Source: Leucoraja erinacea
Lineage: Eukaryota
NCBI RefSeq assembly: GCF_028641065.1
Contig: NC_073384.1
Coordinates: 56,482,001-56,546,000, forward strand
Direction: 5' to 3'
Length of the DNA stretch: 64,000 nucleotides
Below, one piece after another: positions 595-60,341 of the stretch. Each line of letters opens with the position of its first letter. Position 1 is the stretch's first letter. Both the position numbers and the translations under genes were made by a program. The notes below the pieces were generated by a model. That model was not told the DNA's origin. It did not search any database and worked only from the letters and a program-made list of their open reading frames with translations.

Positions 595-795
595 AATAGC
601 CCTTGCTTTACCTCTCTCTACACCCCCCTCCCCCTTCCCAGTGCTCCCACCAGTCGTTACAGTCTCTGAATACATTCTATCTCTCTCCCGCCCACTCCCC
701 TGACATCAGTCTGAAGAAGGGTCTCGACCCGAACCGTCACCCATTCTTTCTCTCTAGAGATGCTGCCTGTCCCGCTGAGTTACTCCAGCATTCTA
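595..795 (+). mobile_element. Penelope-like element 3' terminal repeat fragment with hammerhead-like core
   Basis: Pyrimidine-rich tract, then CTGAAGAAGGGTCTCGACCCGAACCGTC (711-738) and AGATGCTGCCTGTCCCGCTGAGTTACTCCAGC; homologous to the tail of the Penelope RT copy at 49100-49350. Confidence 0.85.
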
Positions 796-839
796 TCCTC
801 TAGTGTATGAATCCTGACTTGCATCCCCCTCACATCCGC

Positions 840-1080
840 ACTCATTGGTCAGCAACATTTGCAGTCTGGAATCTACTGCTTCAAAACATTCCTTCACATT
901 TTCAAATCCATCTGATGATTTGAGTCGTCCTATTTTTGATAATTCCTCCAGTCCTAGATCACTTAACGGTTTCTGTGCTTCTCCAGGTAAATTCTATCAT
1001 TTGATGCCTCGGCAACTTATTAAATCTCTCCACTTTATCTTCCTTTAAGACAATCCTTAAAATTTAACTTTTTGGCCATA
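840..1080 (+). mobile_element. Old L2-like LINE 3' remnant
   Basis: Degenerate similarity to L2 ORF2 end (..tttaagacaatccttaaaa..ttttggcca); resembles 56460-56720. Recognised by eye only. Confidence 0.4.
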
Positions 1081-1699
1081 TGTTGATCAGCACATTTTAC
1101 TATTTTGAGGAACTCTTGTAAATAATAAAACTTCTGGGCCGAACATTTCTCATCCGAATTCCTTAGATGAATCCCAAGTAGTGTAATGCACAGATACCTC
1201 TAGTATCTTTGGTGTAAAGTAGAACTCGGGGGTCAGATGGGCTCTCAGATGCCAGCGCAATGGTGAAGAGATTGTGAGTGGAAGAAGGCAATCAAAACAA
1301 TAGTGAAGGGTTTATAGGGATCAGAGCGGTTGGAATGTCAAATGAAATGCATGAAGCGGCCGTAATACTTAAATACAAAAATCTCCGCCACACGGTGTCA
1401 CCCACGAGACAGCTTTTCAGCAGTTGGCAACATTGCTCGCCTCTACAATCGCAAAATATAATAATCTGAGTTGCAGACGACATACATTCCTTGGGGAAGA
1501 AAGTGCATTCGTTTCATAATATTTTACTGTCCAAATGTATCAATATGGTTGAAAGAATGCACTTTTTGGCGTGAAGGCACCCAACCACGTCGGCTCACAT
1601 AGTTAGCTGAACAAACTCCCCATTGATTACTATAAAACAATGCGTGCAATGAAAAAAATATATATAATCGCATTAAAGGAAAGGTTAAACTGTTGCAGG

Positions 1700-2050
1700 C
1701 CAGCTTTGAATCGACGCTGGCTGGGCGTGTTTTCGCTGTGTGACCATTAAGAAGGAACGACATCTCAGCCCTGCAGCAGCTCGCATTCCTGGCATTCCAC
1801 CTTTCTGATGTCACGAGGCGTAGATTTTTTTCCCCCAAACCCACAAACTCTGACCATGTTATTCCATCGAAAATAGTCTCGCTTGCAAAGTGGGGTGGGG
1901 GGGAAAGAAAGAGGAGAAAGGGAGAGGCGAGGAAAGGGACGGAGAGATCGGACGAGCTGGAAGCGGGAAGGGGAGCGCTGCCCCGGCGGCCGAGCTCTCT
2001 CCCCCCCCCCCACTCACCCTCACCCTACCCCGGGCGAAAGTAGTTGTCGA
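1700..2050 (+). promoter_or_regulatory. CpG-rich promoter region of an unidentified host gene
   Basis: Local CpG enrichment in an otherwise CpG-poor window and not attributable to a repeat; CRE/ATF-like TGATGTCA at 1806-1813; purine tract 1891-1980 followed by pyrimidine tract 1995-2030; immediately upstream of a strong splice donor. Confidence 0.65.
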
Positions 2051-5923: not shown

Positions 5924-6340
5924 TGTGTAGGAAGGAACTGCAGATGCTGGTTTAATCCGAAGATAGACACAAAATACTGGAGGATACTCAGCAGGACAGG
6001 CAGCATCTCTGGATAGGAGGAATGGGTGACGTTTCAGGTCAAGATCCTCCTTCAGACTGTCAGGGGAGGGAGATACTGAGATAAGGAAGCGTAAGGTGTG
6101 AAAACGAGACAAATCTGATGGAGATCAATGAAAATGTAGAATAGATCATTGTTGGCTAGGACAAAGAAAACAGAGATAAAACGTAATTGAGAACAGTCAG
6201 ACTGGTCGGAGAACTGGGCAATGAGGGGGGGGGGGATGGGGAGCAAGGTTTACTTGAAGTTAGAGGTCAATATTCATACCACTGGGGTGTAAACTGTCCA
6301 AGTAAAATATGAGAAGTGGCCTCACTCTGACAATGGACAC
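5924..6340 (-). mobile_element. Penelope-like element 3' fragment (ORF end plus terminal repeat)
   Basis: Reverse complement of the terminal repeat, with hammerhead-like core at 6028-6055; 6250-6315 is homologous to the LIFRLGSL.P.GMN ORF end seen at 46330-46400 and 49040-49107. Confidence 0.85.
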
Positions 6341-7130: not shown

Positions 7131-7350
7131 AGAAAGAATTGCAGATGCTGGTTTAAACTGAAGATGGACACAAAATGCTGGAGTATTTCAGCTGGACAGG
7201 CAGCATCTCTGAGAAGGACGGATGATGTTTTGGGTCAAGACCCTTCTTCAGAGTCTGAAGAAAGGTCCTGACCCGAAACATCGCCCATTCCTTCGATCCA
7301 GAGATGCTGCCTGTCCCGCTGAGTTACTCCAGCATTTTGTGTCTATCTTA
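7131..7350. mobile_element. Palindromic head-to-head Penelope terminal-repeat insertion with 14-bp TSD
   Basis: Arms inverted about ttcagagtctgaa (~7252); flanked by GGGTCTTTGTTCTC (7117-7130) and GGGTTTTTGTTCTC (7351-7364). Confidence 0.88.
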
Positions 7351-7526
7351 GGGTTTTTGTTCTCGTTGGCTGGCGAATCTGTCCTTGTTCCTTATGCGGT
7401 CTTTGGCTGTACTTGTCCGTCCTGTCCTCGTTCTCGGCGGTCACTTCGGCTGCCGGGCTCGTTCTTGTCTGTGTCGACAGTGGGCCGGGTCTGCACCAGC
7501 TAGGCTGTACGGTGCTCGCCGGTGAC

Positions 7527-9730: not shown

Positions 9731-10956
9731 TAAGTTAATTGGGCACTGTAACTTTCCAATAGTGGTGGAATCTGGAGGGAGTAGATGGAAATATGAGGAT
9801 AACAAAATGGGATTAGTATAAATGGGTGGCCTATAGTCAGTGCAGACCCAGTGGGACAAGAGTGTTTTTGAGTTGCATGACTCTCATAGGCACAATTTTA
9901 TTATGTTGGTGCACAATAAAGTTCAGTGGGTGCAGGTTAACTGAGAGCTCTGAGCCCACATCATTACCATGTGATCTTGTTTATTGTTGTAACGATTCTG
10001 AAATCCTATTCAACTATGTGAACAAATAACCTGTTTTAGCAATTTTTTTACCTTAAGATTGCAAATTCAAAAACTAACCAATGTTTTAAAATTATCACTG
10101 ATTTAGTTGAATGGAAATAAATCCAAAAATAAGTCATTTGGAAGAGAAACAATTATATTCAATACTTTATGTATTGTCTTCCTAATTGCATATTTTAAAT
10201 TGAATTTGTTATTGAGATTATAAGTGAGTTTTATTACAATGAAATGATTTAAATCCCCAAAATTGAGGCTTCAGTTCATTAATTACTGCTGGGGTCGACA
10301 TAAGAACACCGCAACTTTACAATTAAAATTTATACTAGGATATGAGCAGCCCTCACCTAAAATTGTGTAGGTGACTGGGAATGAGAAAATCCTGGATACC
10401 AACACGCAGCTTCCCTCCTAAGTGCATATTTCCAATTTTAATGGAGGAGGTATGCAGAGTGGGCAGACACACTCATCAGACAGACTGGCAATTTCATTCA
10501 GATACACTAACCTTCCCTGCTTTCTGATTACTCCAGCTTTTGGATGTGACCTGGGGGCCTAACCGACTGACAGGTTAGCCAGCCAGCCTTTCATTTTTGC
10601 TGGCTTCAGCTGGAAATTAGTGAGTTGAAACAAAAGTGCTTATCACGTCCTGCCATTTAAATTGGACAGGAACTGATGGAAACCTGTTTCTCTGACTTTC
10701 CTCAAGTCCAATGTGATAAGAAAGGAAAACAGGCATATATTTGCTCTGGAAATTCGTTCCCGTTTTCATGTTTGTTATACACCATATGATATTGGCCTGT
10801 GTTGTGCCACTCTCGTGAAAATTAATTTCATTAACTTTAGATAGCATGTTTGATGTCTTTGCCTACCAAATATATGAAGTCAGTGGAACTGAATGGATGC
10901 CTTGATCTGTTAGTTTATGACAAATCTGGTTCACAAATCAATTCTACATTTAATAA

Positions 10957-11158
10957 CACAAAATGCTGGAGTAGCTCAGCGAGACAGGCAGCATCTCTGG
11001 AGAGGAATGGGTGACGTTTCGGGTCGAAACCCAGAAGATGGGTCTTGACCCGAAACGTCATTCCTTCTCTTCAGCGATGCTGCCTGTCTCGCTGAGTTAC
11101 TCCAGCATTTTGTGTCTATCTCCGGTTTAAACCAGCATCTGCAGTTCTTTCCTATACG
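10957..11158. mobile_element. Palindromic head-to-head Penelope terminal-repeat insertion
   Basis: Inverted arms joined at ~11033 inside the hammerhead core; TTAATAA at 10950-10956 and 11159-11165. Confidence 0.88.
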
Positions 11159-13109
11159 TTAATAATATCCATTCTTAAATATTACAGTAACTTTTTTTTA
11201 CTTGCCTTTGCCCTGCTTTTGCCTGCAGCATTGGCTGTTTGAAGAACATTTGTTCAATCAGCGCTTCTCCTCAGTGCTCCACACAACCAGGTGCACCTTT
11301 GTAGACTAGACCCAGCATGAGTTGGAGATTAATGGTCACAGAATGCTCCACAGCATATCACACTTGTTTGGCGGTAACAAACAGCATGCATTTGTATCCC
11401 AATGGCAGCATCTACAATGTTAATCTCCGCAGATTGCTGAATTTGAAATTAATACAGAGCCTGCTTGTTTTAACAGGTATAAATAAACGGCAGCTGTTGC
11501 TACATTCAACACAAGCTTTGTTCATCATCTTAAGAGGGCCTCTAACAAGGCTGGTTCTGAATTGATATTTGAAGTTGGAACCTTTTCATTGTTGACTATC
11601 TGGAGGTGAGCATATGCTAGTTTGAGTTCTCACCGCCATACTTAAAGATTGATTGATATTGAGGTTTTGATTCATTTGGGAAGTCTACCTACTGGGATTA
11701 CATGTTTTTTATAAGGGAGCTTTGAAGTACCATGTTAATTTGTATTGTTGTTTTTGCACATGCTGTTCTTGATATGTGAGCAGAACAATTGTGGATAATG
11801 ATGCTGGAGAGATTTTAGATAGAGGAGCCAACGATCATAAAATCCTCAGTACTTTCAGCGATGTGTTCCGGATGATCTTGTGTGTTTTCATTTTCCATCT
11901 TTCAATACATTGAATAATGCAGATTCCCACTAATTGTGATCTTAAAAAAGATCCAATAATTACGACTGTAACACTGGTAAAAATGTACAAAGTTTCGGAG
12001 TAAGTTGCAACCTACTTTGTCTTACCAATGATTAATGCCATAGCTTATGAACAGGAAATGTTTTGCTTCAGAGAGGGAATCTATAGGATTTTTAAAATGA
12101 GTTATTTGATTGTCAAAAGAGAAATAACTTTTCTGTTGAAATTTAAGTAAAGACATGCTTTAATACACACTTTAGAATGTAATTTTTTTTATTTAATTAC
12201 TTCATCTTTTACATTTTATTTGGTTAATATTTAACATGCTTAACATTGATTATTTGTTATTTTCATTTATTTGATGCTGACTGTGGCAGTTTTACTTTGG
12301 ATGGCAAGGAAGTAATATGACGGTCTAATATGATTTTTCTGGTGTATATGAGTGAATGCATTAGTAAATATACAATGTGAGACTGACTTGCCTGCTTTTG
12401 TGTATATAAAACACCAATGTACAGACAGTGCTTTTGTGTAGCAGAGATTTATGTGGGCATAATGTGTATGCTGTAACGATGACATTTGCATAAATGTTGA
12501 AGAAGTAACGTCGACCTCGCACAGAAAAATATAGGTGTTAATAGGAGAGTCGAAGGTTTACTTGAGCAGGAGTTAAAATATCTTTGCATGAATTGGATGG
12601 ACCAAATGTCTCCATGTGTTCTCAGTAAGGCTGCTGTCTTTCTATGAGGAGGAATCTGAAAGTTCTGACTCTGCCCTTGGTGTTCTCCTATGTTTTAGTA
12701 TCGGATTGTCTGTCGAAGAACCCAAATGCCTAATGCATTCCCATCTCGCCCACGTCAGGCAGTAGGTCATCTGATTTGGGCCTACTACTTGCAGAAGCCA
12801 TTCCCATTGCCAACAGTTGTCTTAAGTACTCCTACCATGGCACTAGGTTGTTGAGCCATTTGAGCTTCCAGATGTCCTTGGAATTAAGCGTGGCTGTTGT
12901 TTGTAATTGTACTAAGAATCTGGGAACTTCACCACTTAATGCATTGGATTTTTTGCATGTCGCGCAGGTAAGAATATGTCACTGTCCCCCGCAGATTCAC
13001 AGTCCATTATGTACCAATATTTTGACATTGTCCGTCCCGTGTTTTAAAGTTTCCAAACTGAAGTACTATCCACCTATAATTGTCTGAGATACTAGCTTTT
13101 CATTTGTTG

Positions 13110-13312
13110 AAGGCACAAAGAACGGCAGGTGCTGGTTTACAAAAAAAACCCACAGTGCTGGAGTAACTCAGCAGGTCCTGACCTGCATTTCTGGAGGATG
13201 TGGATAGGTGACTCAGTCTGAAGAAGGGGCTCCGATCCAAAACATCACCTCTCTGCGTTCTCCTGAGCTGCTGACTGACCCACTGTGTTACCTCAGCATC
13301 TTGGCTTTTTCT
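13110..13312. mobile_element. Older palindromic Penelope terminal-repeat insertion
   Basis: Minus arm (gtgctggagtaactcagc...ataggtgac) then plus arm (cagtctgaagaagggg...aaaacatcacc...cctcagcat). Confidence 0.7.
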
Positions 13313-16457: not shown

Positions 16458-17959
16458 ACTCCAAAATGGCATGCTTGCATCTATGAGTTCAGGATTAAGT
16501 CAACCATCTGCGGTGGGCTTTGTAATTCAATACCTTAACTAGTCCAATTGAGAACACCCTTGTTTAATGGCTTGAGCAGCTAGTCAACAAAAATAAATTA
16601 AATTCCTTCATTTCCAATCGCCCTGCAAAGCAAATGTACAAATCGATAGAACGGCCATGCTTGATTGAACTGTGGGAAGTTTCTCAATGTATGGTGTAAA
16701 CTTCAGCAATGTCTCCTCACACTGTATGCTCCCCAAATCTTAGCTATTTCACCTTAGCTTTAACATGCAGCATTGTGTAAATCAGGTGCATTGTTTTCAA
16801 AAGTGAACTTGCATTTTGTATCGGGCGTTCCTTAGGAACTTGGCTCCAATTCGTAAATGGGATTGTTGGATTGTCAGATGCCCATTTATTTGAGAAACCA
16901 TTTTTGAAAAACACCAGGAATATAAATACGATCTGTTTTGCGAACCTTGGAATAGTTAATGTATGATTACACCTTGTGGCAAATTCTTGGGTTTCAGCCC
17001 TTGGTCTAACATGGTTTGTTGATTACATCTGTGTCCTTAAATTTTAGTTGATTGTAGAGTTAGCACTGTTTATTCGAATTCACTAACTTTGGCTGGAAGT
17101 TCACTCAAAGGCACACTTGACAGTTTTGTGCCTTGATAGATTAACATTTCTTAATCAGTATCTGGATAAAAAAAAGCAACATGTATACATGCTGAACGTA
17201 AAATAAAACCAGAAAATGCTTTATATACTCAGCAAGTCAGACTGCATCCATGGGAAGAGAGGCAGAGCTAACTTTCAGTGTGAAGACTCATCATCAGATA
17301 CTGGGATTAGGCGGTGAGAATTGAACATGTTTGTTAGTTTTCCACTTACTGTGTCATTTACATACCAGGGCCTTAAGACCTGCATGGGCCAGAGAGAATT
17401 CCCATTAACTTACTGCAAAAGTTTTCCTTAAGTCATTCATTATCATGTTGGGGATCCCCAAACACTCTACAAAGCTATCGGTCTTTCATATTTGTTGACC
17501 TGAAAGTCATTGCATGGGAGATCCCCTACAACAAGAATACCAGTCAAGCCTGAAACACTCTGTTTTAACTTCAGATATGACAGCGGTGCCACAATTTCCA
17601 TCATTTAACATTCAACTGAAATGACAAATGAAATAAGATCTTTGCAGTGGTGTTTTATATACTGTACCGCTCACTGGAAATTCAAATGCATTATAGTGGG
17701 CTAAATATTACAAAGCCACGAATTTGAAAAATAGTTTCCCAATTAGTTCAGATTAGTTTAATGATTTTTTTTCTGATTCTAAGAACAGTGGAATTTATCA
17801 GAGAGTACATTTATGTTTGGACAGGCTTGGATAAACTTTATATTATGGTGGTTTACTTATGGTGTTGAGCTCAGATCAGGTTGTGCATTTTGTACATAAG
17901 CAGACTGCAAACTGAGGTGTAATTCCATCTCAGCAGGAAAATAAAACACAACCTATTTT

Positions 17960-18100
17960 CAGGAAAAAACAAAAACTTCTAGAGGAACTCAGCAGGTCAG
18001 ACAGTGTCTGGGGAGGGATTGGACAGGTAATGCTCCCTGATCCGCTGAGTTTCTTTTGTGTTTTGCTCAAGATTCTAGCATTGGCCGTCTCCTGTATCTA
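17960..18100. mobile_element. Old palindromic Penelope terminal-repeat remnant
   Basis: gaggaactcagcaggtcagacag... followed by inverted ..tgctccctgatccgctgagttt..gattctagcat. Confidence 0.55.
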
Positions 18101-22930: not shown

Positions 22931-23479
22931 TATATATTTTAAAGTTGAGCTGTCTTGGACCAGGGAGTTGTCTTTGACCAGGGACTCCCTTATACTAAGA
23001 GGCTTTGAAACCTCTTTGAAGCATGCCTGTTTGTTTTGACGGTAGTAGTGCAGCTACCTTCTCAAAGAGTGGGAATATTTTACTCTATGGGACCTCTGTT
23101 GCAACAATAAGAGCTGTATAACTATGGGCATTTCCCCAGCTGGCTCTGCTTATGGACTCAATTTATGATACAAGTTAGATTTATATGGTCAACATTCTAA
23201 TATGCACCCAGCAGTTACTGGTTTCTGCCTTATCTGAGAAAGAATAAATCAGTCACCCTATACATACATACATGGATTCAGGTGTCTTGCATTCTGAGTG
23301 TAAAGGAGCATTGAAATAAAAGTCGGAACCAAAGGATACCTTACCTGAACTTTAACTCTATTAGCATATGAATCTGTTTCCAACTCATGCATGAGTGCTG
23401 CACAACTTTTTCCCTCATTTCTGATCTTTCTGGCCATTACCTACAAAAGCCTATTGTTAAATATGCACACTTTGAAGGA

Positions 23480-23600
23480 GACCCAACCCAAAATATCACC
23501 TATCCATGTTCTCCAGGGACGCTGTTTGACCCGCTGAGTCACTTCAGCAGTTTGTGTCCTTATTTGTAAATTAGTAGCTGCAGATCCTTGTTTGTTCACC
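23480..23600 (+). mobile_element. Old Penelope terminal-repeat fragment
   Basis: tgaaggagacccaacccaaaatatcacctatccatgttctccagggacgctg..gacccgctgagt. Confidence 0.65.
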
Positions 23601-27741: not shown

Positions 27742-27860
27742 TACAAGGAACTGCAGATGCTAGTTTACAAAATAAGACACACCTTGTGAGTAACTCAGCG
27801 AGTCAGGGTGCATCTCTGGAGACGGGTACAGGTGACGTTTCGGGTCAGGAGCCTTCTTCA
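27742..27860 (-). mobile_element. Penelope terminal-repeat single-arm insertion
   Basis: tacaaggaactgcagatgct...ggtgacgtttcgggtcaggagccttcttca; cataatcaaa present on both sides (27727-27736, 27859-27868). Confidence 0.8.
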
Positions 27861-27967
27861 TAATCAAATATTTATCCCACCCTTGTCATTCCTTCTTCTT
27901 CTTGCTCCCGTTGGGTAGAAGATACAGAAGCTTGAAAGTCTGTACCACCAGACTCAGGAGCAGCTTG

Positions 27968-28255
27968 TGTAGGAAGGAACTGCAATGCTGGTTTAAACCG
28001 AAGATAGACACAGAAAGCTGGAGTAACTCAGCAGGACAGGCAGCAACTCTGGAGAAAAGGAATGGGTGACGTTTCAGATTGAGACCCTTCTTGAGAAGAA
28101 TGGTCTCGACCCGAAACGTGACAGATTCCTTTTCTCCAGAGATGCTGCCTGTCCTGCCTTCTGCTCAAGAAGGGTCTCAATCCGTAACATCACCTATTCC
28201 TTTTCTCCCGAGATGCTGCCTGTCCCACTGAGTTACTCTAGCTTTTTGCGTCTAT
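27968..28255. mobile_element. Penelope terminal-repeat insertion: one inverted arm plus two tandem arms
   Basis: Minus arm to ~28090, plus arms from ~28095 and ~28167; flanked by CTCAGGAGCAGCTTG (27953-27967) and CTCAAGAACAGCTTG (28256-28270). Confidence 0.85.
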
Positions 28256-29046: not shown

Positions 29047-29211
29047 TTAACAGACTGGTATCCCTGTGTTGGAATATGTGGCACGGTGTTTCTAGACACA
29101 CTACTTTATACAGTTAGTCATCACCATTAACCTGTAGTCTTCATAATGCCCATCCCCAAACGCCCTAATTGCTTCTCCATTGCCATGGCTTTGTCAGTAG
29201 GAAAATTGGAG

Positions 29212-33449: not shown

Positions 33450-33670
33450 AAGATAGACACAAAAAGCTGGAGTAACTCAACAGGACAGGCAGCATCTCTG
33501 GAGAGAAGGAATGGGTGACATTTCGGGTCGAGACCCTTCTGCGTTATGGCCATTTTGAATACGGGAATGCCTGAAGAAGAGTCTCGACCAGAAACATCAT
33601 CCATTCCTTCTCTCCAGAGATGCTGCCTGTCCCGCTGACTTACTCCAGCTTTTTGCATCTATCTTCGGAT
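33450..33670. mobile_element. Two opposed Penelope terminal-repeat arms, each with its own TSD
   Basis: Minus arm 33450-33538 flanked by CTGCGTTATGGCCA (33436-33449, 33539-33552); plus arm 33569-33670 flanked by TACGGGAAT (33560-33568, 33671-33679). Confidence 0.85.
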
Positions 33671-35679: not shown

Positions 35680-36220
35680 TGTGTAAGAAGGAACTGCAGA
35701 TGCTGGTTTAAACCAAAGTTAGACATAAAAAGCTGGAGAAACGAAGCGGGACAAGCAGCATCTCTGGAGAGAAGGAATGGGTGTTGTTTCGGGTCCAGGC
35801 GCTTCTTCAGATTTGCTCAGTAGCCATCGGGTTATTTATTCTGCTCAGGCAGGGTGTTTACCTTAGTTGCAAAGCCTTAAGGAGGTACAAGGAAGAACAG
35901 ATGCTGGTTTACAAAAAATGACACAAAGTGATGGAGTAAGTCAGCAGATCATGCAGCATTTCTGGAGAACATAGATAGTTGATGTTTTGGTCGGGACCAT
36001 TCTTCTCCAGACTTATTTAGTAACTAACCTACAAACAACCTTTTTTCCTTCCTTCCCCTCATCTGTATCCAGGTATCAGTCACCAGTCCTTGTCCTGCCC
36101 CTCCTCTTTATTCCAGTTTATCCACCCCCCACCCCGACCAGAATCTCTGAAGAAGGGTCACAAACCAAAACATCACCTATCCATGTTTCCCAGAGAATTT
36201 GTGTCTTTCTTTTGTTATAA
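35680..36220. mobile_element. Cluster of Penelope terminal-repeat arms (minus 35680-35811, minus 35885-36013, plus ~36040-36220)
   Basis: Each matches the terminal repeat; minus arms end at cttcttcaga / tcttctccagact. Confidence 0.8.
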
Positions 36221-36634: not shown

Positions 36635-36790
36635 GGAAGTAGACACAAAGTGCTTAAGCAACTTGGCGGCATCTCTGGAGCTTGCGAGCCTGCGCTTGGT
36701 CTCGCCATATGCAGGAGTCCACACCTGGAACAGCAGATACAGTAGAACAGTAGATGAGGTTGGAGGAGGTGCAAGTGAACCTATGAATTC
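36635..36790 (-). mobile_element. Penelope GIY-YIG endonuclease fragment fused to terminal-repeat remnant
   Basis: Minus-strand frames give SNLIY..CICCSRCGLL and YGETKRRL, the GIY-YIG signature of Penelope-like elements (frameshifted). Confidence 0.7.
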
Positions 36791-42046: not shown

Positions 42047-42252
42047 ATAGACACAAAAAGCTGGAGTAACTCAGCGGGACAGACAACATCTCTGGAGAAA
42101 AGAAATGGGTGACATTCGGGTCGAGACTCTTCTTCAGACTTCTCGATCCAAAATGTCACCCATTCCTTCTCTCCAGAGGCGCTGTCTGTCCAGCTGAGTT
42201 ACTTTTGTGTCTATCTTTGGTTTAAACCAGCATCCGCAGTTCCTTCCAACAC
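42047..42252. mobile_element. Palindromic Penelope terminal-repeat insertion with ~17-bp TSD
   Basis: Arms joined at ~42140; ATTAATGACCCATTATAG (42033-42050) vs ATTAATGTCCCATATAG (42253-42269). Confidence 0.85.
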
Positions 42253-43194
42253 ATTAATGTCCCATATAGCTTTTAAGGTAATCTGACAGCCCTATTGATA
42301 CTATAATCAATATTATTCCTTCATTTCCAGATGTTATTTTAAATTGAATATGTGTTCTGCCCTGCTGTTTTTAATTTGCGTTCTCTGGACTATTATAGAT
42401 CAAATCATGTTGCCAATAAAGAGCCATCTCACCACCGGGGCAGGAGAATGGGGGTCCCTGTTTTTATATTTTCTCTTTTTCAGTCTTTTGTGAGAAGTGT
42501 GTTTGGCGTACTCTTTTCGATTTGTGGTATCAAGACTTCATTAAGACAAAAATTTACATTTACAGTGTGTGAATTTTGCCTTTTTTTGGGTGGTATTTCT
42601 GAATGTATCGGCCAAGTGTTTAAATTAGCTGGAATTGTATCCTGATGTTGATCAAGGGAACTTTGAGTTGGAATTCCATCATCGGAACTGGGGAGATTTT
42701 AATTCCAAATTCATTATCTGAATTTAACGCAATAATTTATAATTGTAACTACATAAACACAAGGGTGTCATTAAAAATCCATCTTGTTCACTGATGTCCT
42801 TATGTGTCTCTGGATTTTTAGCAATGGAGTTTACCCATTAGCTATTTTCTTAAAGGGATTAGCGAGCTACCCAGTTGAGGGATTGGACAATGAAATAGCA
42901 GTGTTGACATTACTTAAAAATATACTGGGTTATGGAATTTAATTATTAAAATACGTTGGAATAAAATGATTTATATTTAATTCCAACATTAAGAATTGTG
43001 GCGTGTTTTTGAAAATTGGAATTTATTTGTTTGCTACCACATCAATAAAGGGCTGAATATCACATTCGGTCCCAAATGTTGCATCCTTTGGGATGTTATG
43101 ATGTGCTTTTTTGTGTGAGGTAGAAAGAGTAAGAGATGAAATCTAAATAGATGGCTGTAGGAATCCAAAGCAGGCTGCAAGTTGGATTTTAAAA

Positions 43195-43464
43195 TGTGTA
43201 GGAAGGAACTGCAGATATAAAACATTTTGAGTGCAGGATGGAAATTGGTGGTGAAGTTGACGAAGTCCATGAGTTCTGCACGGGCGCAAGATGTAGCATC
43301 GATGCCGTCGACAATGTAACGGAGATAGAGTTCGGGGATAGGGCCAGTGTTCGCCTGGAATAGGGATTGTTTGAAGAAGGGTGTCAACCCGAAACGTCAC
43401 CCATTCCTTCTCTCCAGAGATGCTGCCTGTCCCGCAGAGCTACTCCAGCTTTTTGTGTCTATCT
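43195..43464. mobile_element. Penelope RT fragment (minus) fused to an inverted terminal-repeat arm (plus)
   Basis: Minus ORF segment QSLFQANTGPIPELYLRYIVDG..ATSC..ELMDFVNFTTNFHPAL is homologous to the 48013 ORF; plus arm starts at 43371. Confidence 0.88.
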
Positions 43465-44119
43465 GCGTGTTAAATCAGTGCCTTTGGTGGTGGCAAGATT
43501 TTCTGACTGCTTTTCATTAACTTTTTAGCAAGCACACTAGGCAGATTTCTAACAGGCAAGTCACATTGGCGATTCTATTGCCTTCAAATCTTCCCCGAGG
43601 GTTACGGTACACTTCTCCTTCAAGGACATTGTTCTTTTGATGCTTTTGTGTTTGATGTTTAAAGAGTTCAGTTTTCGAAAGTAAAAATGGTGGTGTCTCA
43701 GTAAAGTTACTATTCGTTTTTTTTTTAAAAGGGGCAAATTCATCAAAGCAACAGCTTCAAAAGAATTGCAATCCAGATCCAAATTGTTCACCCATCCCTA
43801 CAATTGTGGCTGTTCTTGTGGAATTTCTGTGTTATTTTAACTTTGTGAAAAAACTGAAACCAACAAAAATGCCAATGCTTGTGGTTTGCGTGAATTTTTT
43901 GATTCAGCTTCTGCAGCTCAACGAAACCATTTATTTAACCCCTTCATCGGCCATGGTAGTATTTCTAAATTGTTGAGCTTATGGCAATGATTTTTCACTC
44001 AAATATGACTGAATATAGGCAGTAATTTAAAATGTGAACATATTTTGCTTTGGGGAATTTATATGACACAAGTGGACTTAAGATAGTGAGGAAAGTTGGG
44101 TTCATTTCTTTTGAGAAAC

Positions 44120-44910: not shown

Positions 44911-45389
44911 AACAAACAAACGTGCAAGCAGGGTGAAAAAATGTGGATTTAGAGAGATTATTTAAAATTTCGGATGTAAATAATCAAAAGGTGTGCAGTG
45001 TGCCCAAAAAGCAAATTACTACAGATGCTGGAAATCTGAAACAAACGCAGAAATGTTTGAAAAAATCAGGCTACATTTGAAAAGAGAAAAACAGTACTCC
45101 AGCACTTTGTGTCTTTTTTATAAACCACCACCTGCAGTTCCTTGTGTCAGCATAATGTTTCATCAGAGGACAGAGCTTCAACCTGATTTTGTCTTACCAC
45201 AGATGCTGGCTGACCACCTGTTTTTTTAGCATTATCTGCTTTTTTTCCACATAGACATGTCTTGCTATTGCTGTCTGATTTTTAAGTGTGTGCCTCTGTT
45301 GCATAATAAGCTGTAGTACTAAACAGTGTTCATAGATACAAAAAATATGTTTATTATTAACCTTGCTAATGAATTGGTGAAATGGAAGC

Positions 45390-45520
45390 CAGTCAGATGA
45401 AGGGACCCAACCCAAAATTTCACCTGTCCATATCCTCCAGAGATGCTGCCTGGCCTGCTGAATTACTCCATTGCTTTGTGTTTTACTCGAGATTCCAGCA
45501 TCTGAGGTTCCTTGTGTCAC
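45390..45520 (+). mobile_element. Old Penelope terminal-repeat arm (another remnant at 45018-45150)
   Basis: gatgaagggacccaacccaaaatttcacctgtcc..ctccagagatgctgcctggcctgctgaattactcca. Confidence 0.7.
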
Positions 45521-46249: not shown

Positions 46250-46798
46250 AGGCCTCCCATTCCCACACTGACCTTTCTGTCCAGGGCCTCCTCCACTGTC
46301 AGAGTGAGGCCAAATGCAAATTGGAGGACCAGCACCTCATATTTCGCTTGGGCAGCTTATAACCCAGCGGTATGACTGTTGATTTCTCTAACTTCAAGTA
46401 ACCCTTGCATCCCCTCTCTCTCCGTCCCTTCCCCAACCTAGTGGTCGTAATAAGAAGGGTTTCGGCCCGAAACGTTGCCTATTTCCTTCGCTCCATAGAT
46501 GCTGCTGCACCCGCTGAGTTTCTCCAGCTTTTTTGTGTAATAATTTCACTGTCGCCCTGCTGAGTTCCATTGTTTGTATCTCGTTATCACCTTATCTACA
46601 GCCAACAATGGCTTTGATCTGCCTTTTTGCACATCTTTCATTAATTTGTTCTATTTCTTGGTTCCCTCTCCCCTGACACAGTCTGAAGAAAGGTCTCAAT
46701 CCAAAACGTCAACTATTGCTTTTCTCCAGAGATGCTGCCTGTCCCGCTGAGTTACTCCAGCATTTTGTGTAAACCAGCATCGGCCTTCCCTTCCTACA
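46250..46798 (+). mobile_element. Penelope 3' fragment (endonuclease C-terminus plus terminal repeat) with nested arm of the other subfamily
   Basis: SHSHTDLSVQGLLHCQSEAKCKLEDQHLIFRLGSL; nested arm 46454-46536 flanked by GTAATAA (46447-46453, 46537-46543); host core at 46683-46710. Confidence 0.88.
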
Positions 46799-48012
46799 AT
46801 TTTAGTTGTTGGAATATAAATGGAAGGGGCTGAGCATCGCTGTGAATTGAATTGCAGCCGTAAGTGCTGATATAAATAATATTTATTTTTGGTGTATGAC
46901 AGGATTATTTTGAATTCAGCTACTGGGCTCATAATGTGGAAAAATAAGGGTAATGTCAAAACAATGTCTCAATTATAGGTGTTTCCTGAGAGACTTTGAT
47001 TAAAATTATGTTAGTTATCCATCAGAACAGCCCTGCAAAACTGCTTTGCATTTCCGTTGGTGGCAGCCATTTCTTTGAGCTTCTTCTTCCTGTCGAGTCC
47101 ACATACAAGATTAGAAGTTGTTCAGCCAGAGCTGAATACACCTCTCGGCATCTGCATATAATGGTGTCTGTCTTGTCTCTTCTTGTGCGTGGCGGTGGAA
47201 AAATGAGTGGAAACAGGGTCGCGATGTGAACGCTCTTTCCTTGACCCCATTTCTTTGAGCTGTATTCCCCCCTTTTATTCCTAATACTGACAGAAAATCC
47301 CAGACCTCACTAAAAGCAAGTCTTGAGAATGGAGTTCACTCAGCAGATTTTTGAGTCTTGTTCTCCATACTTCACTATTTCCTTTAAGATATTACCCTTC
47401 AATTTTTCTTAAACCCTTTCCCCGATCCCCTCAGTCCTTTCAGTTACCAGTCTTTTTGTCTTTATTTGTTGTTTCTGTTAGTTTGTTCCTTCGTATTATC
47501 TTGAGTGGCTTTCTGTTTGGATAGTTTGTCGTGCAACATAGACCGTATCAAGCTGCTATACCTTGTGCTTTCCAGCATGCATCAACATGCCACATTAACT
47601 CTGTAAGAGTCCACGCAAGGCTTATAAACAACATTTAGTTCCTTTGATTCTTACGGGTGTATTTCAGTAATACCTTGACAGGTTGTGCATTAAAGCTTCT
47701 GATGTCATCAGTGAATCCTGCAAGATACCGAGCGATGAAGACTGCGTTCAATCCTTGGTCAGCTCCTCTCAGTCTGTAGCATTGTCAATAATGTGGTTGG
47801 TACATTTGCGTTATCTTATAAAGTAAAAAGCAAGCAGAAGATATTCTCTCAGTAGAAATAAAGAAATAAAGACGCCCCGCGACTCGACCACCAGCAGACT
47901 CCAGGCCCCAACTACAGCCTGCATCGCCTGCCCAAGTCCCGCGACGCCATCTTGGCCACGAGGAGCGCCTACAATACTCACCAGGACGCCGCCTTCACCA
48001 ACCTCCACATCG

Positions 48013-49107
48013 ATGCCGCCGCCGACCCTCACCTGCCTACCGATGACGCCCAGCCTCGCCGCTTCTACGGTAACTTGGACCCGCTCCCCATCGCTGATTC
48101 CTCCGACCCTCGCCGCCCTCCGGGACCGCCTAGCCTCATCGCCGCACCGGGCCTACCCGACATCGCCGCCGCACTGGGCCCATCCAGCATCTTCGCTGGA
48201 CCGGGCCCACTCTCTAGGCCCTCGCCTCCTCATCTTCACCATGGACGTCCAATCACTCTACACCTCCATCCCCCACCAGGATGGCCTCAAAGCCCTCTGG
48301 TTCTTCCTCGACCAGAGGAGCAACCTATACCCAGCCACTGACACCCTCCTCCGCCTAGCGGAGTTGGTCCTCACCCTCAACAACTTTACGTTTGACTCCT
48401 CCCATTTCCTCCAAACACAAGGCGTAGTTATGGGCACACGCATGGGCCCCAGCTATGCCTGCCTCTTTGTCGGGTACGTTGAACAATCCTTGTTCAATAC
48501 GTACCAGGGCCCCATCCCCGACCTCTACCTCCGTTACATTGACAACTGCTTTGGTGCCACCTCCTGCACCCACACACAACTGACTGACTTCATCCACTTC
48601 ACCACCAACTTCCATCCGGCACTCCAATACACCTGGACCATTTCCGACACTTCCCTACCATTCCTTGACCTCACCATCTCCATCGCAGGGGACAGACCTC
48701 TGACCGACATACACTACAAACCAACTGACTCGCATGGCTATCTGGACTACATGTCTTCCCACCCTTCCCCCTGTAAAGACTCCATCCCCTACTCCCAATT
48801 CCTCCGCCTACGCCGCATCTGTTCCCAGGATGAGACGTTCCACACCAGGGCATCGGAAATGTCCTCGTTCTTCAGGGAACGGGGATTCCCCTCTGCCACC
48901 ATAGATGAGGCTCGCACTAGGGTCTCATCCATACCCCGCAACACTGCTCTCTCTCCCCATCCCCGCACTCGCAACAAGGGAAGAGTCCCCCTAGTCCTCA
49001 CCTTTCAGAGTGAGCAACACCGGAAATTGGAGAAACAGCACCTCATATTCCGCCTGGGCAGCTTGCGTCCGGATGGCATGAACGTTGAATTCTTCCAGTT
49101 TTGCTAG
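48013..49107 (+). pseudogene. Penelope-type reverse transcriptase, truncated; GIY-YIG largely deleted
   Basis: PLE RT motifs FTMDVQSLYTSIPH, QTQGVVMGTRMGPSYACLF, YLRYIDN (normally YIDD), LPFLDL, YKPTD, SSHP, SIPYSQFLRLRRICS; VPLVLTF joined directly to the C-terminal EKQHLIFRLG. Confidence 0.92.
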
Positions 49108-49217
49108 CCCTTGCTGTCTCCTCCCCTTCCTTAACCCTCGAGCTGTCTCCTCCCATCCCCCTGCCCTCGGGCTCTTCCTCCTCCCTTTTTCCTTCCTTCT
49201 TCCCCCCCACCCCCCAT

Positions 49218-49253
49218 CAGTCTGAAGAAGGGTTTCGGCCCGAAACGTCGCCT
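49218..49253 (+). ncRNA. Minimal type I hammerhead ribozyme motif (predicted)
   Basis: CUGAAGA (49222-49228), extra A, stem II GGGU-UUCG-GCCC, GAAA, palindromic ACGU stem III without loop, GUC cleavage triplet (49247-49249); the location in a Penelope terminal repeat fits the known association. Confidence 0.75.
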
Positions 49254-49357
49254 ATTTCCTTCGCTCCATAGATGCTGCTGCACCCGCTGAGTTTCTCCAG
49301 CATTTTTGTGTACCTTCGATCTTCCAACATCTGCAGTTCCTTCTTGAACACCCAAGA

Positions 49358-49470
49358 TCTACAGATGCTAGTTTATACCAAAAATGGACCCAAAGTGTTG
49401 GAATAACTCGGTGTCAGGCAGAATCTCTGAAGAAAAAGGATGGGTGATGTTATGGGTCGGTACCCTTCTT
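49358..49470 (-). mobile_element. Penelope terminal-repeat arm, older
   Basis: tacagatgctagttta...gggtgatgttatgggtcggtacccttctt. Confidence 0.7.
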
Positions 49471-50999: not shown

Positions 51000-53195
51000 A
51001 TTGCTCTACTGGAGAGAGAGAACAACACTTGACCTTTTCTTGGGAAATGAGGCAGGACTGACGTGTCAGTGGAGGAATATTTTGGGACCAGTGACCATAA
51101 TTTTAAATAGTTATGGAAAAACATCGCATTGATCCACAAGTTAAATTCCCAAATTGGGGCATGGCTAATTTTGGGGGCATTTGACAGGAACTTGCAAAGA
51201 TTAATTAAAAGAGGCTGTTACCACATAAAGGGACGTCTAGCAAGTGGGAGCTTATTAAAAGTGAGATAGCAAGAGTTTGGGGCCAACTTGAAGTAAAGGG
51301 TAGGATTGGGAAACCCTAGTTAATGAGTAATATTGAGGCTCTGGTCAGGAAAAAGAAAGAGGTAAATGTCAGGCAAAAAAACAAAGTGTTGCAGGAACTC
51401 AGCAGGCCAGGCAGTACCTATGGAGTGGGGGTGGACTAATAATCAAACAAATCCCTTGAGGAGTATTAGCAATGCCGGAGTACAATTAATAACTAAATCA
51501 GGAAGTCAAAATGGAAGATGTCCTCTGCAGATAAGGAAAAGGAAAATCCTGAGAGTCTCTAAAAGTATGGAAAAGGATAACTAGCGACGGAATCGGTGTT
51601 GGCATCTGTGTGTCGAGCTACACAATATGGGCAAGGTCAAAAATGACTACTTTATCTTTGTGTTTATCATTGAGAAGGTCACGGAAGCTAGGGAATTAAG
51701 GGAAGAGAATAATGATGCCCTGAAACATTGACATTATGTAAGGGGAGTTTTTGATGATCTTGCAACATATAAAGGTGGATAAATCCCTGGTTTCTATAAA
51801 TCCCTGCCTGTCCAAATGTATCCTATGGTGTTATGGGAAGTCAGAGAAGAAATTGCTGGCACGCCGGCTGATCTTCCTTAGCTATGGGTGTGGACTGGAA
51901 GACGATAAATACTGTGCCTTTATTTAAGAAGGATTGCAAGAACAACCAGAGTACTACAGGCTGCTGAGCCTAACATTGATGTTGAGAAAGTTGCTGCAGG
52001 AGATTATCAGAGATCGGGCTTATCTGTGTCTGAAGAAGGGTCTTGACTTCGAAACGCCACCCATTCCTTCTCTCCAGATATGCTGCCTGTCCCGCTGAGT
52101 TACTCCAGATTTTTGTGTCTATCTTTGGAAAGGTAACGACTGATTATGGAGAGTCAGCATGACTTTGTGTGAAGTTGTCTCTCACAAATTTGATTGAGTC
52201 TTTCGAAGAGGAGACCAAGAGAAGTGATGAATGCAGGGTAGTAGACATTATTTATGTTTGACAAGTACTGCATGGTAGGCTGGCCAGAAGTTTCAATCAC
52301 ATGGGATCCAGGGCGAGCTGGCCAATTGGATATAAAATTGGCTCAGTGGAAGGAATTAGAGAGTGGTGGTGGAAGGTTGATTTCCAGATTGGAAGACTGT
52401 GAATAGTGATTAGTGCTGTTATTTACAATTTGGATGCAAAATTAGATGGTGGGATTAATGTTTGCAAATGACACCAAAATTGGTGACATGGTTGACTGTG
52501 AAGAAGGTTGCCTGAGGTTACAACAAGACCTAGATCAACTGGAAAATGGGCAAACGAATGGGAGATGGAACTTCATTTGGACTTGTGAAATCCTGTATTT
52601 TGGTAAATTGAACGGTGGCAGGACTTACACAATGAATCACAGGGTCATGTGGAGCAGGGAGACATTGTTCTCTAAAGGTGGAGATGCAGGTAGACAAGGT
52701 GGTGAAGAAAGATTATGGCATGCTTGCCTTCATCGGTCAGAGCATTGAGTGCAAGGGTTTGGATGACACATTGCCTGGAATATTGTGTGCTGTTCTGGTC
52801 ACCCTTCTATAAGAAGGATTAAGTCAGAGAGGGTATACAAAGATTCACAATGATGTTGCTGGAACTGCGGTTTAAATCAAATGGAGAGACTTTATAAAAT
52901 CATAAGGTGCATGTTCTTGGTATTTATACCCAGGGTAAGGGAGTCTAAAACTAAGGGACAGACGTTTGAGAGAGGAAAGATTTAAAAGGACATGTGACTA
53001 GATTTTTGCATAGGATATTTGGAAGGAGCTGGCAGAGGAAGTGGCGGAGGTGGGTTCAATTGCAATGTTTAAAAGATGTTTGGACACATAATACTGGATA
53101 GGAAAGGTATAGAGTGAAGTGAGCTAAAGACGGGCAAATGAGACTAGCATGTTGGTTGCTATGGACTTGGATGGACATGTTTCTGTTCTAAATAA
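51000..53195 (+). mobile_element. Long degraded CR1 ORF2 remnant
   Basis: gaccagtgaccataat (SDHN), aaaggtggataaatccc, tgtgcctttatttaagaagg (VPLFKK), agtcagcatgacttt (SQH.F), MFANDTKIG (decayed FADD), 3' UTR to ~53195. Confidence 0.85.
52028..52125 (+). mobile_element. Penelope terminal-repeat arm nested in CR1
   Basis: gtctgaagaagggtcttgacttcgaaacgccacccattcc...ttttgtgtctatct. Confidence 0.85.
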
Positions 53196-56459: not shown

Positions 56460-56720
56460 CTCTAAATCACTCCATTGTTGGCATTCATGTCATCGGCTGC
56501 TAAGGCCATAAACACTGGAATTCCTGTCCTGAACCTCTGTGTTTCCACCTCGTTTTCCTCCTTTTTAGACGCATCTTAAACCCACATCTTTATCCAGGTT
56601 TTGGGACATTGCACCAACAGATCATGGCTTGTGTTTTAAATTTTATTTTAAGACATTCCTTCAAATGCTTTGATAGTTTTATTTTATTAAAGCTGCTGTT
56701 TAAATAAAATATCTTGCTTT
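56460..56720 (+). mobile_element. Old L2-like LINE 3' remnant
   Basis: ctggaattcc (WNS), cctcctttttagacgcatcttaaacccacatcttt (SF..LK.HLF-like), tail ..ataaaatatcttgcttttgctgttg. Confidence 0.5.
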
Positions 56721-58029
56721 TGCTGTTGAACGATTGCTCTAACGCTCCATTTTATCACCCAGATGTAGCAATCAGAGGTTATATATTAATAAAAGAATGT
56801 CATTGTCCTAGCTTTGTGACGACTTTTCAACTTCTCCAGTATTAAAACTGAGCTACTGATAGGTGGTGGTACACATAGCTGGTGTTAAATAATGACACGT
56901 TTCCACTGTAAATGAGCAATGTTTCAAGCTGTCCTTGTTACCTTTATTTAAGAGGGTATTATTTACTTTGTGCTTTCTCCCCACTGTATGAGTCATTAAG
57001 GCCATTGATTGACTCAAATTATGTGTAGGATATTCAAGTGCCAAGAGTGCAGGATGTTTTGCAAGGGAGAGCTGTAATAGTAGAACCCTTTCACTAAAGT
57101 TTTTATTGATAGATTGTGGTACCTGTTGTGAAGCTTTGTGTCATTTTAATGCTGGTAAATCCCGTGCTAAATTTTAATTCTTTTACCACTTTATGTTTTC
57201 ATTATCTTTTGAACACATGGATGGCTAGATGGTCTCTTTTGAAGTCTGCATCTTGTGTAGTTGTGCTTGTTATAGGGAAGAGTAAAAGTGCATTGGAGTA
57301 TCTATCTACTGCCATACATTTTGGCCACAATAGACAAGGAATGCATCCCGTGCGGAACTGCACGTGTGATCTGACACCCGACTGCCAAACGGCGCTGTTC
57401 CCAGAACCTTCACTCTTTCTAAAATGCTAGACTCCCCAGATGGCTTATTTGCTGAAACAATAGAACTTCATGGGTTTCAGCTATTTGGATTAGTAGTGCC
57501 TCAATTTGAATTACTGTTGAACTAATCAATTGCAACCATATTGAAAGGAAACTCAGAGTATTTCCCCTTCCTGGCACGAAGATGAGGTTACTTTAAATGC
57601 TACCACGATACGGAATAATTAGTAGTAACAGTTAGAAATATGTGTAATGCCCATATATACAATCACTGAGTTTATAATGAGGGAAATCTGAGTGTTCCTG
57701 GCATTGCAATTAGTCATTGGTAAATTTCAGTGGATTATTCAGAATCAATGCCAGATTATTTATTGTCAGCTGCACTACAGAGCTATGAAATTCTTTGTTT
57801 GCATGAAGCTCATGGAGTAAACTGTATACATGGTAATGATAAATACAAGGGATGACACAATAATAAATTAATCTGAAGTAGTGCAAAAAAAAAAAATTAG
57901 ATTGCAATAATGAAACAGGTGATCTTTTTACCTCCGTCCTCTTGCGCCGACCCTGCCTTGCCCTCGGTTCATTCCTTCACATTCTTCTCCCATCTTCTGA
58001 TCTCCAACTGGTTCCTGCCATGTTTGATG

Positions 58030-58452
58030 GCACTAGGCCTATATTCATTGAAGTTTAGAAGAATGAGGGGGGGGGCACATTGAGATGTACAGAATAGTGA
58101 AAGGCTTGGATAGAGGGGACGTGGAAAGAATGTTTCCACGTGGGAGAGCCTAGGACTAGAGGTCAAAGCCTCAGAATTAAATGACATTCTTCTCGCAAGG
58201 AGATGAGGAGGAATTTCTTTAGTCAGAGGGTGGTGAATCAGTGGAACTCTTTGCTACAGAAGGCTATTGAGGAAAAGTCAGTGGATATATTTAAGGCAGA
58301 GATAGATATTCTTGATTAGTATGGATGTCAGAAGTTATGGGGAGAAGGCAGGAGAATGGGGTAAGGAGGGAGAGATAGACCAGCCATGATTGAATGGAGT
58401 AGACTTGATGGGCCTAATGGCCTAATTCTACTCCTATCTCTCATGATCTTAT
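58030..58452 (+). mobile_element. CR1 3' fragment
   Basis: ctaggcctatattcattgaagtttagaagaatgaggggg...agtcagagggtggtgaatc...cagccatgattgaatgg. Confidence 0.88.
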
Positions 58453-59974
58453 GTGGAATTGCTCCTACAACAGCTGCTAGGTTTCTGCAAAGACTGTCAA
58501 CCATTAGAGGACCTTGGGGTGGAGGAAAGTGAAGGTCGTGGATGGTGAAGGTGCCGGGGAAATTTCTGCGTGGTAATTAGTTGATTTTCACATTTGCCGA
58601 TGTTCCATGATTGGATACATGGAGTCAGAATATGATATAATCAGCTCTCTAAGAATCCGGAATGGGCAGCTTTCCAACTGTCTATATGTTGAAGAGATTC
58701 CAGCTATTTATGTGGAGATTTTCCCAACTTGGGGCCATTGTTGTTCTATAAGTTTTTATCCACAACAAAACCATCACCCACTCGGTGTTACTTGCTTTAT
58801 GATACCGGCGTTAAACAGTAATTTATCACATCGTTTGCATGGGAGGACAAAAACTTGGGTCTCCATTGAGTAAAACTGGTTAGCAATCGGTAGCATTCTT
58901 GATGAATTGATTAAAAAAAGTGGTTTGGTGAAGGGAGGAGAACTGCATTTTTATATGCGATCATAAGAAAGCATTCGTTAACTGCCTATTGCAGCAGTGG
59001 TAATATTTCAGTGATGAGAGAGAAAATATAGTTTGTATATTTGAACATGAATAATTTATGGGGGATGTTTATTTGGCCATGAAATGACCTTAGGGGCGAA
59101 ATTGTAGTGTCTTCCATCTTGTTAATTCGTTCAAAATCGCCCTTTCAGAACGATGAGTATATCCTCTGGTTTTGTTGGTGTCAATCTTTGCTGCCCCGTC
59201 ATTTGAGAGAAGAAATTCTGGAGGCTGCAATGCGCACAACACACATATCTCTCTGACTGTTTAGACTTAGTCCACAGTTTGCCTTTCCAAATTATCTGGT
59301 TTAGGATTACATATTACCTTCAGTTGCTGCTTTGTTTGTTTTTCCTTAAATGGAATGCTGGATTGCATCCAGAGCAACATTCCATGAGCAGAAGGTATAA
59401 CAAGAACAGACATGATATCTGAAATAGTTTGTTTTCTTCCCCCTAGGAAAGAGAAATAGTAAATCTGCAGCTTGTGGTAACAAGCAAGAACTAAACTGCC
59501 ATCAGTCAAGGCCAAGAAAGTTAGGCATTGGTATTTTTTGATGAGACACCCACTTTTCTTTGGCATATCTGATCTGCCGCTACACTCATATTAATGTTTT
59601 AACAATTGACTTTGCTGCAGCTTGCTAAAGGTCTTCCGGCTCTGGAATTGTATGATTGTATAGGCAGCTGGTCCACACCCCTAAAGAGCTATTGACATTG
59701 TTTGTTACAGGATTTCTTAGTCTTGGCATCAGGTTGACGTATTTCTGATCTGCTACCTCATGTGAGGTCCTTGTGTATGAGCTTCAATTGTTGATTTATT
59801 TGGCGTGGAGCCCATTTTACCTCTGATTTATGTTGTGTATCTGAGTAGAATAGCCTTTTGGGGTAACTGCACAATTGATTTGTTCAATAGGTAGAAACTG
59901 AAGTACTGCAACAAAAATGCCAATTTTTAAATAGAAGGAAATTATAATTGTAAATCAAAACAACCCTTCTCGCA

Positions 59975-60341
59975 CGCTGAGGCCAGGAGCAGAGAGGGAG
60001 AAGGAGGCCTCCTTCTGCTGGGTGAGGTGCAGGAAGAGGAGGCGGTGGAGCCGCTGTCGCGGCCGCTGTTGCCGCTGTTCGGGGCCCGTCATTCGCTCCG
60101 ACCCTTCGTCACCACGCACCTAGTATCTTTGCCATGCATTACAGCCGTCGCTGACACAAAACGTCACGTTCCTATTCTCCAGAGATGCTGCCTGACCCGC
60201 GGAGTTACTCCAGTTTTTTGTGTCTATCGGTATAAACCAGTATCTGCTTTCCAAGCCGGGCAAAATGAGTCGGCGTTTAGGTTGCCCGGAGGCACTTTGG
60301 GTGGTCAATGGCACCCGGGCAACCGCTAATTTCGAGACCTG
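59975..60341. mobile_element. Truncated GC-rich DNA-transposon end (hAT-like) containing a Penelope arm at 60157-60250
   Basis: CpG-rich block ending ..cccgggcaaccgctaatttcgagacCTG (CAG-starting terminus on minus strand); the matching left TIR was not found. Confidence 0.45.

Follow-up and report, generated by a model that had tools for sequence, protein, structure and literature searches.

The window analyzed here is a stretch of 64,000 nucleotides from Leucoraja erinacea (NCBI RefSeq assembly GCF_028641065.1, contig NC_073384.1, positions 56,482,001 to 56,546,000 of the forward strand). It contains many copies of a short unit with a minimal type I hammerhead ribozyme, and by its sequence this unit is the terminal repeat (pLTR) of Neptune-type Penelope-like retrotransposons (PLEs). 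A large share of the copies begin at one 5′ boundary close to the ribozyme core. Positions in the unit are counted from the C of CTGAAGA as 0, with the predicted hammerhead cut after +27. A profile built on 18 window copies matched 36 times in the window, where a sequence-only reading of the same DNA had counted about 20, and 600 times across a sample of 1.364 Mb, composed of 128 evenly spaced 10-kb stretches from large contigs, two stretches flanking the window, and the window itself. Of the two outer positions given by that reading, 711 belongs to a long copy (−106) and 60250 is the 3′ end of a truncated unit. Outside the window, the profile search gave 434 copies per Mb (3.9% of bases), which extrapolates to about 1 million copies in the 2.19-Gb genome. 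The copies in the window, with target-site duplications (TSDs) where found, are as follows.

47941..49351 (+), long, internally deleted family-b PLE copy: N-terminal piece, reverse transcriptase (RT)/thumb, endonuclease (EN) end, pyrimidine-rich 3′ untranslated region (3′UTR), and terminal unit with tail (blastn to loci L046/L047, 92–95%, and translation)
49216..49351 (+), reference unit, −6 to about +130, ending that family-b copy
49217..49223 (+), initiator-like TCAGTCT at the boundary, from the sequence; also acceptor-like (polypyrimidine plus CAG)
49222..49249 (+), core of the minimal type I hammerhead, with the cut predicted after 49249; none of the other 36 window copies has an intact core
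598..792 (+), long copy with 106 nt of 3′UTR
5924..6313 (−), long copy (−277), tailed
7132..7355, head-to-head pair, tailed and tail-less arm; TSD 7117–7130 / 7351–7364
10956..11160, head-to-head pair, tail-less and tailed arm
13115..13310, head-to-head pair; TSD 13097–13109 / 13309–13321
17196..17260 (−), old degenerate fragment
17964..18054, old degenerate head-to-head pair
23474..23599 (+), solo tailed unit, start +5; 7-bp TSD
27740..27860 (−), solo tailed unit, start +1; TSD 27727–27736 / 27859–27868
27966..28257, head-to-head pair with an extra tandem piece; TSD 27953–27968 / 28256–28271
28956..29057 (−), tail-less family-b solo, whose perfect 12-bp TSD shares bases with the 5′ end (microhomology)
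32200..32285 (−), solo unit, start −7
33447..33672, head-to-head pair with about 30 nt of filler repeating flanking DNA
35679..35811 (−), solo tailed unit, start −1
35887..36196, short arm (−12) opposite a longer one (−86)
36641..36680 (−), short fragment
42047..42255, head-to-head pair; TSD 42033–42045 / 42253–42265
43183..43478, unit at 43369–43478 (start −2) facing an antisense RT fragment and tail piece
45095..45148 (+), tailed 3′ fragment
45390..45518 (+), solo tailed unit, start −4
46452..46539 (+), young family-b unit with 7-bp TSD, inside the older long copy 46253–46798
49356..49470 (−), solo unit, start +3
51375..51425 (−), truncated fragment
52028..52128 (+), solo tail-less unit, start −2
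60153..60247 (+), truncated unit, start +15

At least five families share the unit, and their long copies differ in the pyrimidine-rich 3′UTR that follows the EN end. The unit is present at both ends of the element; at L046 the element opens at −2, crosses the unit, and reaches an ATG at +163. One open reading frame (ORF) is present, with open frames of 529–1052 aa. Its RT domain matches RVT_1 at 30.2 bits (cut-off 29.6) in L047, and its C-terminal GIY-YIG endonuclease, with two cysteines between GIY and YIG (motif at aa 666–681 of L047), matches Pfam with E values of 7e−4 and 2e−4, slightly short of the cut-off. These domains, together with the partial-tandem pLTR, optional tail, inverted copy, and TSDs that are the hallmarks of EN-bearing (EN+) PLEs, confirm the Penelope origin recognized in the sequence-only reading. 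The clade is indicated by a Neptune-type linker, a CX2-5CxxC motif between RT and EN (aa 629–637 of L047) examined in family b; the motif is used to define Neptune but is assigned to Nematis too (PMC8557442). Nine of 60 family calls disagreed between unit and 3′UTR, as chimeras formed by strand transfer would; one of the nine is a nested insertion, and unresolved subfamilies may account for the others. The reading frame of the unit itself is open in the consensuses of families a and b, but a stop closes it in family c, and the idea that the unit is coding sequence was dropped.

Two fixed 3′ ends were found, at about +95 (tail-less) and about +131 (tailed), giving units of 100–135 nt in two sizes, and not the one size of about 130 nt proposed from the sequence alone. 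Among the 30 best-scoring loci with a unit followed by an ORF start, 8 begin at −11..+2, 6 at +7..+17, and 6 carry upstream 3′UTR as partial tandems; three upstream calls proved on inspection to be artefacts, and the rest begin further inside. Seventeen of the 30 (L167–L195) have a second unit-like stretch within 1.3 kb. In these the ORF start mostly breaks at +224 to +836 and joins a 5′-truncated copy, in four cases at −13..−4, and each junction is different. They look like template jumps building direct tandems, although the query favored breaks beyond +226. Two family-b elements at L046 are placed back to back; an insertion interrupts one of them, and the other has a 1052-aa open frame without its 3′ end. 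At L169:1565–1580, the family-b start codon at +163 is overlapped by AAG|GTATG, which resembles a splice donor.

For 5′-end calling, each copy was aligned to the family consensuses and to individual long copies. This gave 552 ends from the 600 matches, after 31 uncalled copies, 8 cut by a locus edge, and 9 artefacts had been dropped, the last including 28096 (−) and 33571 (+), which were called long via their inverted partners. The ends fall into 212 at −10..+4, or about 38% at the common boundary, 225 further inside, and 115 upstream, and short copies make up about 80% of the total in the sample. There are 156 ends at −10..−1 but only 10 at −20..−11 (p = 8e−35). Per base, the end rate is 0.113 at −5..−1, 0.008 at +11..+55, and 0.003–0.009 below −10, so that the boundary exceeds other positions more than 10-fold, whereas 900 simulated uniform truncations passed through a similar caller gave a flat profile. 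The sequence-only reading had suspected a non-uniform distribution with a preferred complementary DNA (cDNA) end near the CTGAAGA core, and the rates bear this out; each of its 16 listed positions has a 5′ junction close to the core no more than about 12 nt away.

The pyrimidine content upstream of solo boundary copies is 0.49 (n = 122), as in random or genomic DNA, versus 0.72 in 106 long copies. Since the DNA upstream of the solo copies has genomic composition, the pyrimidine tract is truly absent from them, and the boundary is not an alignment artefact. Furthermore, it stands at the same position in all five larger families despite their differing 3′UTRs, and adjoins the pyrimidine tract in every family; TCAGT is found there in five of six family consensuses. 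In genome-wide raw counts for family b, point mutations included, 2140 matches have A or G before −3, versus 701 before +1 and 779 and 1214 at other positions, and 2621 of 14,447 matches continue exactly into the C-run. Raw reads of run X24, a single poly(A) run from an organism that need not be a close relative, show the same step in depth at the boundary, with the main loose ends at −6..−2. As a control, 208 matches to one CR1 copy of the window were examined. Of these, 56 start at the edge of the reference itself, and this peak was rejected as a real boundary; the remaining starts are dispersed, with at most 17 per 25-nt bin, in agreement with the scattered CR1 truncation noted earlier.

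The minimal type I hammerhead reported earlier (core, extra base, stem II, and palindromic helix III) is present in all five consensuses, C0 having one core change. The majority of cores have decayed: among copies that reach the core, it is intact in 23 of 34 for family b, 26 of 115 for family a, and 2 of 80 for family c. The ribozyme does not appear to set the 5′ end. The boundary lies about 29–33 nt upstream of the predicted cut, rather than the roughly 25 nt estimated before, and there is no excess of ends at the cut itself (15 at +26..30, versus 19 and 19 in the adjoining bins), so that simple self-cleavage is no explanation, as the sequence-only reading had already argued. Both ends of the unit lie away from the cut, and the ribozyme is probably a marker of the boundary merely through adjacency. 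That the stubs are retrozyme-like, with hammerhead self-cleavage giving a small linear or circular RNA that is then reverse transcribed, is therefore very improbable, even though the minimal core is conserved and retrozymes are related to pLTRs (10.64898/2026.07.22.740005). Only 28 of the 600 copies have a same-strand neighbor within 100 nt upstream, and there is no hammerhead array in the window. The unit folds no better than shuffled sequences (z = 0.43), and minimal hammerheads cleave poorly (PMC4209133).

The units insert on their own. TSDs with a score of at least 9 surround 16 of the 69 solos that start at the boundary, where 0.4 were expected, and 21 of the 43 inverted pairs, where 0.1 were expected, as compared with 4 of 63 internally truncated copies and 4 of 45 long copies. 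Since TSDs flank both solos and pairs, stubs and pairs are single insertion events. At the 5′ junctions of solos there is frequently an overlap of a few bases with the TSD, or an addition of up to 7 bases. In the window at 46253–46798 and at L029, young units with TSDs lie inside older Penelope copies, near the EN end.

The independent mobilization suggested by the sequence-only reading is thus upheld as to insertion, but not as to a SINE-like or retrozyme-like family in its own right. If the stubs were an independently propagating family like the short interspersed elements (SINEs), transcribed from solos and mobilized in trans, their abundance and their own TSDs would be accounted for, and internal initiation would avoid 3′ transduction; the family-b nearest-neighbor result (p = 0.01) and a young subfamily that appears rich in long copies also point this way. 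We nevertheless consider it improbable. Short copies have the same divergence as long ones (identity to consensus per family, p = 0.47–1), no diagnostic allele was found among up to 95 sites per family in four families (smallest p = 0.019), and ORF-bearing copies share the boundary. Tail-less solos could not template tailed arms, and the ~55 nt downstream of the start sites, which the anole protein needs (PMC11167929), are missing from solos. The family-b exception may reflect subfamilies with different shares of long copies. No Rfam match to a tRNA-, 5S-, or 7SL-type RNA polymerase III head was obtained in the window at E up to 5 (A and B boxes were not scanned). With no lineage of their own, no arrays, and ends not set by cleavage, a new separate family, whether SINE or retrozyme, was rejected.

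The head-to-head pairs are informative about the template. Short copies occur in such pairs in 185 of 454 cases, versus 3 of 79 for long copies (21–284 nt of upstream sequence). In 53 of the 83 pairs, the 3′ ends of both arms fall at a defined site; of these, 50 combine a tailed with a tail-less arm, 3 have both arms tail-less, and none has both tailed; unpaired copies comprise 92 tailed and 102 tail-less (47% tailed; p = 2e−12 for the pair asymmetry). All 39 confidently typed pairs consist of one family, versus 33% expected by chance. The filler between the arms at 33540–33571 repeats 12 nt from outside the left end and resembles right-end DNA, and so represents a templated patch.

Long pairs show the same arrangement. 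Nine long–long pairs, which were chosen by position from a pattern listing, are all tailed plus tail-less (9/9), with about 150–1770 nt of upstream sequence in their arms and arm-to-arm identities of 98–99.6% in eight and 94% in one. Arm lengths are coupled: there are 76 short–short, ≤4 short–long, and 5 long–long pairs, where 12.8 short–long and 0.6 long–long would be expected, though the latter two counts are small and come from different scripts. Same-family long–long neighbors in the sample number 5, versus 0 in a tail-to-tail control, and long–short neighbors 9 versus 11. Among 20 resolved long copies of a young subfamily, 7 arms (4 events) face an antisense body, 2 face a short arm, and 11 face nothing. 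This subfamily of family b, with G at −7 and about 5800 exact-pattern matches, also has long inverted duplications of 0.5–2.6 kb with near-identical arms (L196–L235).

Because arm lengths are coupled, the limit belongs to the template and not to independent stalls. This bears on a roadblock model, in which the RNA would be longer and the boundary would be the point where RT stalls, or where the cDNA is trimmed, at the edge of the pyrimidine tract, owing to bound splicing factors or a G-rich cDNA structure. The adjacency of the tract in every family would suit this, as would the spread of ends across several bases and the lack of a detected start site or cap-derived G. Independent stalls, however, predict about 59 short–long pairs per 76 short–short, against the ≤4 observed; the end rate within the tract is low (0.006–0.009), and the boundary position is constant whatever the tract sequence. 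We regard a roadblock as unlikely, if the least unlikely of the alternatives. Retroviral minus-strand strong-stop DNA is a short run-off cDNA of the RNA 5′ end, but routine strand transfer of such a run-off cDNA to the 3′ unit is disfavored here, since it should give many short–long pairs. In L1 twin priming, two target ends prime on one RNA and the arms copy different parts of it, unlike the present pairs, in which both arms copy the same part.

The repeats are stand-alone terminal-repeat insertions, and we suggest that they probably arose by run-off copying of the element RNA over its first 95 or 131 bases, a reading to which we give a probability of about 0.6. The endonuclease would make two staggered nicks about 10–18 bp apart, and reverse transcription would be primed from each nick on the same RNA, at one of its two internal sites. 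The two cDNAs would then extend to the RNA 5′ end and be joined head-to-head, or one would be lost, leaving solos, about half of which are tailed. The hammerhead would be carried uncut in the template. Less firmly, most RNAs may start at the initiator-like TCAGT, with copying of the first unit giving stubs, and RNAs reading through from further upstream may give the long copies and long–long pairs. In a bolder form, to which we give slightly less than even odds, double priming with one start site per nick is obligate, and since the internal start site lies merely 95–131 nt from the transcription start, the run-off stub is the main product, accounting for the roughly one million insertions and about 4% of the sampled DNA. 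If this is true, the one-sided tail and the head-to-head pLTRs have one mechanism, and the promoter has been mapped from DNA alone.

A transcription start is the likeliest cause of the RNA end. The boundary TCAGTCT matches the initiator consensus, and TCAGT is kept across families even though merely two of its bases pair in helix I. PLE promoters with their start site are located inside the pLTR (PMC2377424, PMC8557442). Several observations weigh against the run-off interpretation, besides the selection of the nine long pairs and the small counts mentioned above. Solo ends are distributed over −5..−1 (15, 13, 14, 14, and 18), more broadly than a simulated single start. In X24 there is no pile-up of molecule starts, 91% of the 6480 aligned reads continuing into unlike sequence, and the two strands are equal over the unit. 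No cap-derived G was detected before −3 starts (G/A 900/1240, versus 289/412 at a control position, p = 0.72). One of five nearest-neighbor tests separated short from long copies (family b, p = 0.01). Fold-back of a single cDNA would also couple arm lengths; it is disfavored because it would need tailed cDNAs alone to fold, yet solos are half tail-less. Finally, the boundary also resembles a splice acceptor, and the Penelope intron of D. virilis ends at the same place in the hammerhead (PMC4209133). A G excess at −7 (5823 matches, with G in 97 of the first 100 listed) was rejected as a cap signature, being a variant of the young subfamily; 31 of 37 consecutive matches of this type continue into the pyrimidine tract. 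In X24, parts of the ORF at L169:1000–1240 and 1540–1630 are strand-biased, the first mate being 1.4 to 5 times more frequent on the plus strand, which would mean mostly antisense RNA under the usual stranded protocol.

The acceptor resemblance raises the question of whether the RNA end arises by processing at the CAG, such that the tract would terminate an intron, like that of D. virilis Penelope, and either cleavage or a very short exon would leave the unit first. A polypyrimidine stretch plus CAG at −4..−2 with a 2-bp helix I, the mapping of the D. virilis intron end to helix I (PMC4209133), and loose read ends that include −3 and −2 are consistent with this. On the other hand, none of 123 solo boundary copies has element sequence joined upstream, bar one insertion into an older copy, and no 8-mer is common to more than 3 of the 123 flanks; neither a spliced copy nor a hidden upstream exon was found. 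TSDs abut the boundary with 0–7 extra bases, and no GT..AG joint was seen among the X24 matches listed. Processing at the CAG is thus a doubtful source of the end, and we retain run-off at a transcription start.

Much of this architecture is known, the hammerhead of PLEs included (PMC4209133). EN+ PLEs share the partial-tandem terminal repeat, the optional tail of 30–40 bp at one end, the adjacent head-to-head 5′-truncated copy, TSDs, and solo pLTRs (PMC8557442, PMC3846280). The 5′ truncation described there is variable, whereas here a single boundary accounts for about 38% of ends and stubs dominate; the tail asymmetry and coupled arm lengths are counted here. Inversions have been explained by self-priming on an antisense template (PMC3846280), but our data fit double priming on sense RNA better. 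In the Poseidon element PAc of the green anole, the single PLE reconstituted to date, two internal RT start sites bound the tail, both strands are cut and extended, and the uncut RNA is the template, hammerhead included (PMC11167929). PAc differs from the present elements in clade, since these have a Neptune-type linker, and in that both strands use both sites alike in vitro, whereas our genomic pairs use one site each; no fixed 5′ end is reported for it in the main text (PMC11167929).

The metazoan PLE minimal hammerheads have the same core, unpaired base before stem II, G10.1–C11.1, and palindromic ACGU, and are likewise mostly single and dispersed, some lying close together on opposite strands; self-cleavage and circular templates were proposed for them, but the copy ends here ignore the cut (PMC4209133). 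Metazoan non-LTR retrozymes are also short, non-coding, hammerhead-bearing, and pLTR-related, but form tandem arrays with typically canonical hammerheads and are processed to circles, in contrast to these dispersed solos and inverted pairs (PMC7229834, 10.64898/2026.07.22.740005). The PLE literature covered, PMC8969392 included, describes no fixed 5′ boundary for pLTR stubs, no near-strict asymmetry of tails, and no coupling of arm lengths; sources beyond this scope that could bear on novelty are Repbase and Dfam, the supplements of PMC11167929 (genomic coverage in Fig. S2), and most subscription journals. The stubs would be a natural footprint of how PLEs copy and integrate, with testable junction rules, namely that each target strand uses one start site, that the template limit is shared, and that the 5′ end lies at −6..−1. 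The data also indicate that the proper annotation of this very abundant short repeat is Penelope stubs, and neither a SINE nor active ribozymes.

An Rfam scan of the window gave 11 matches, all below the gathering score, and no match to a hammerhead model. A weak match to the CPEB3 (HDV-like) ribozyme at 47197–47256 (−), with 26.8 bits versus 35 (E = 0.007), may be due to chance. An AT-rich hairpin at 35081–35197 weakly matches microRNA models and is possibly a small inverted-repeat element.

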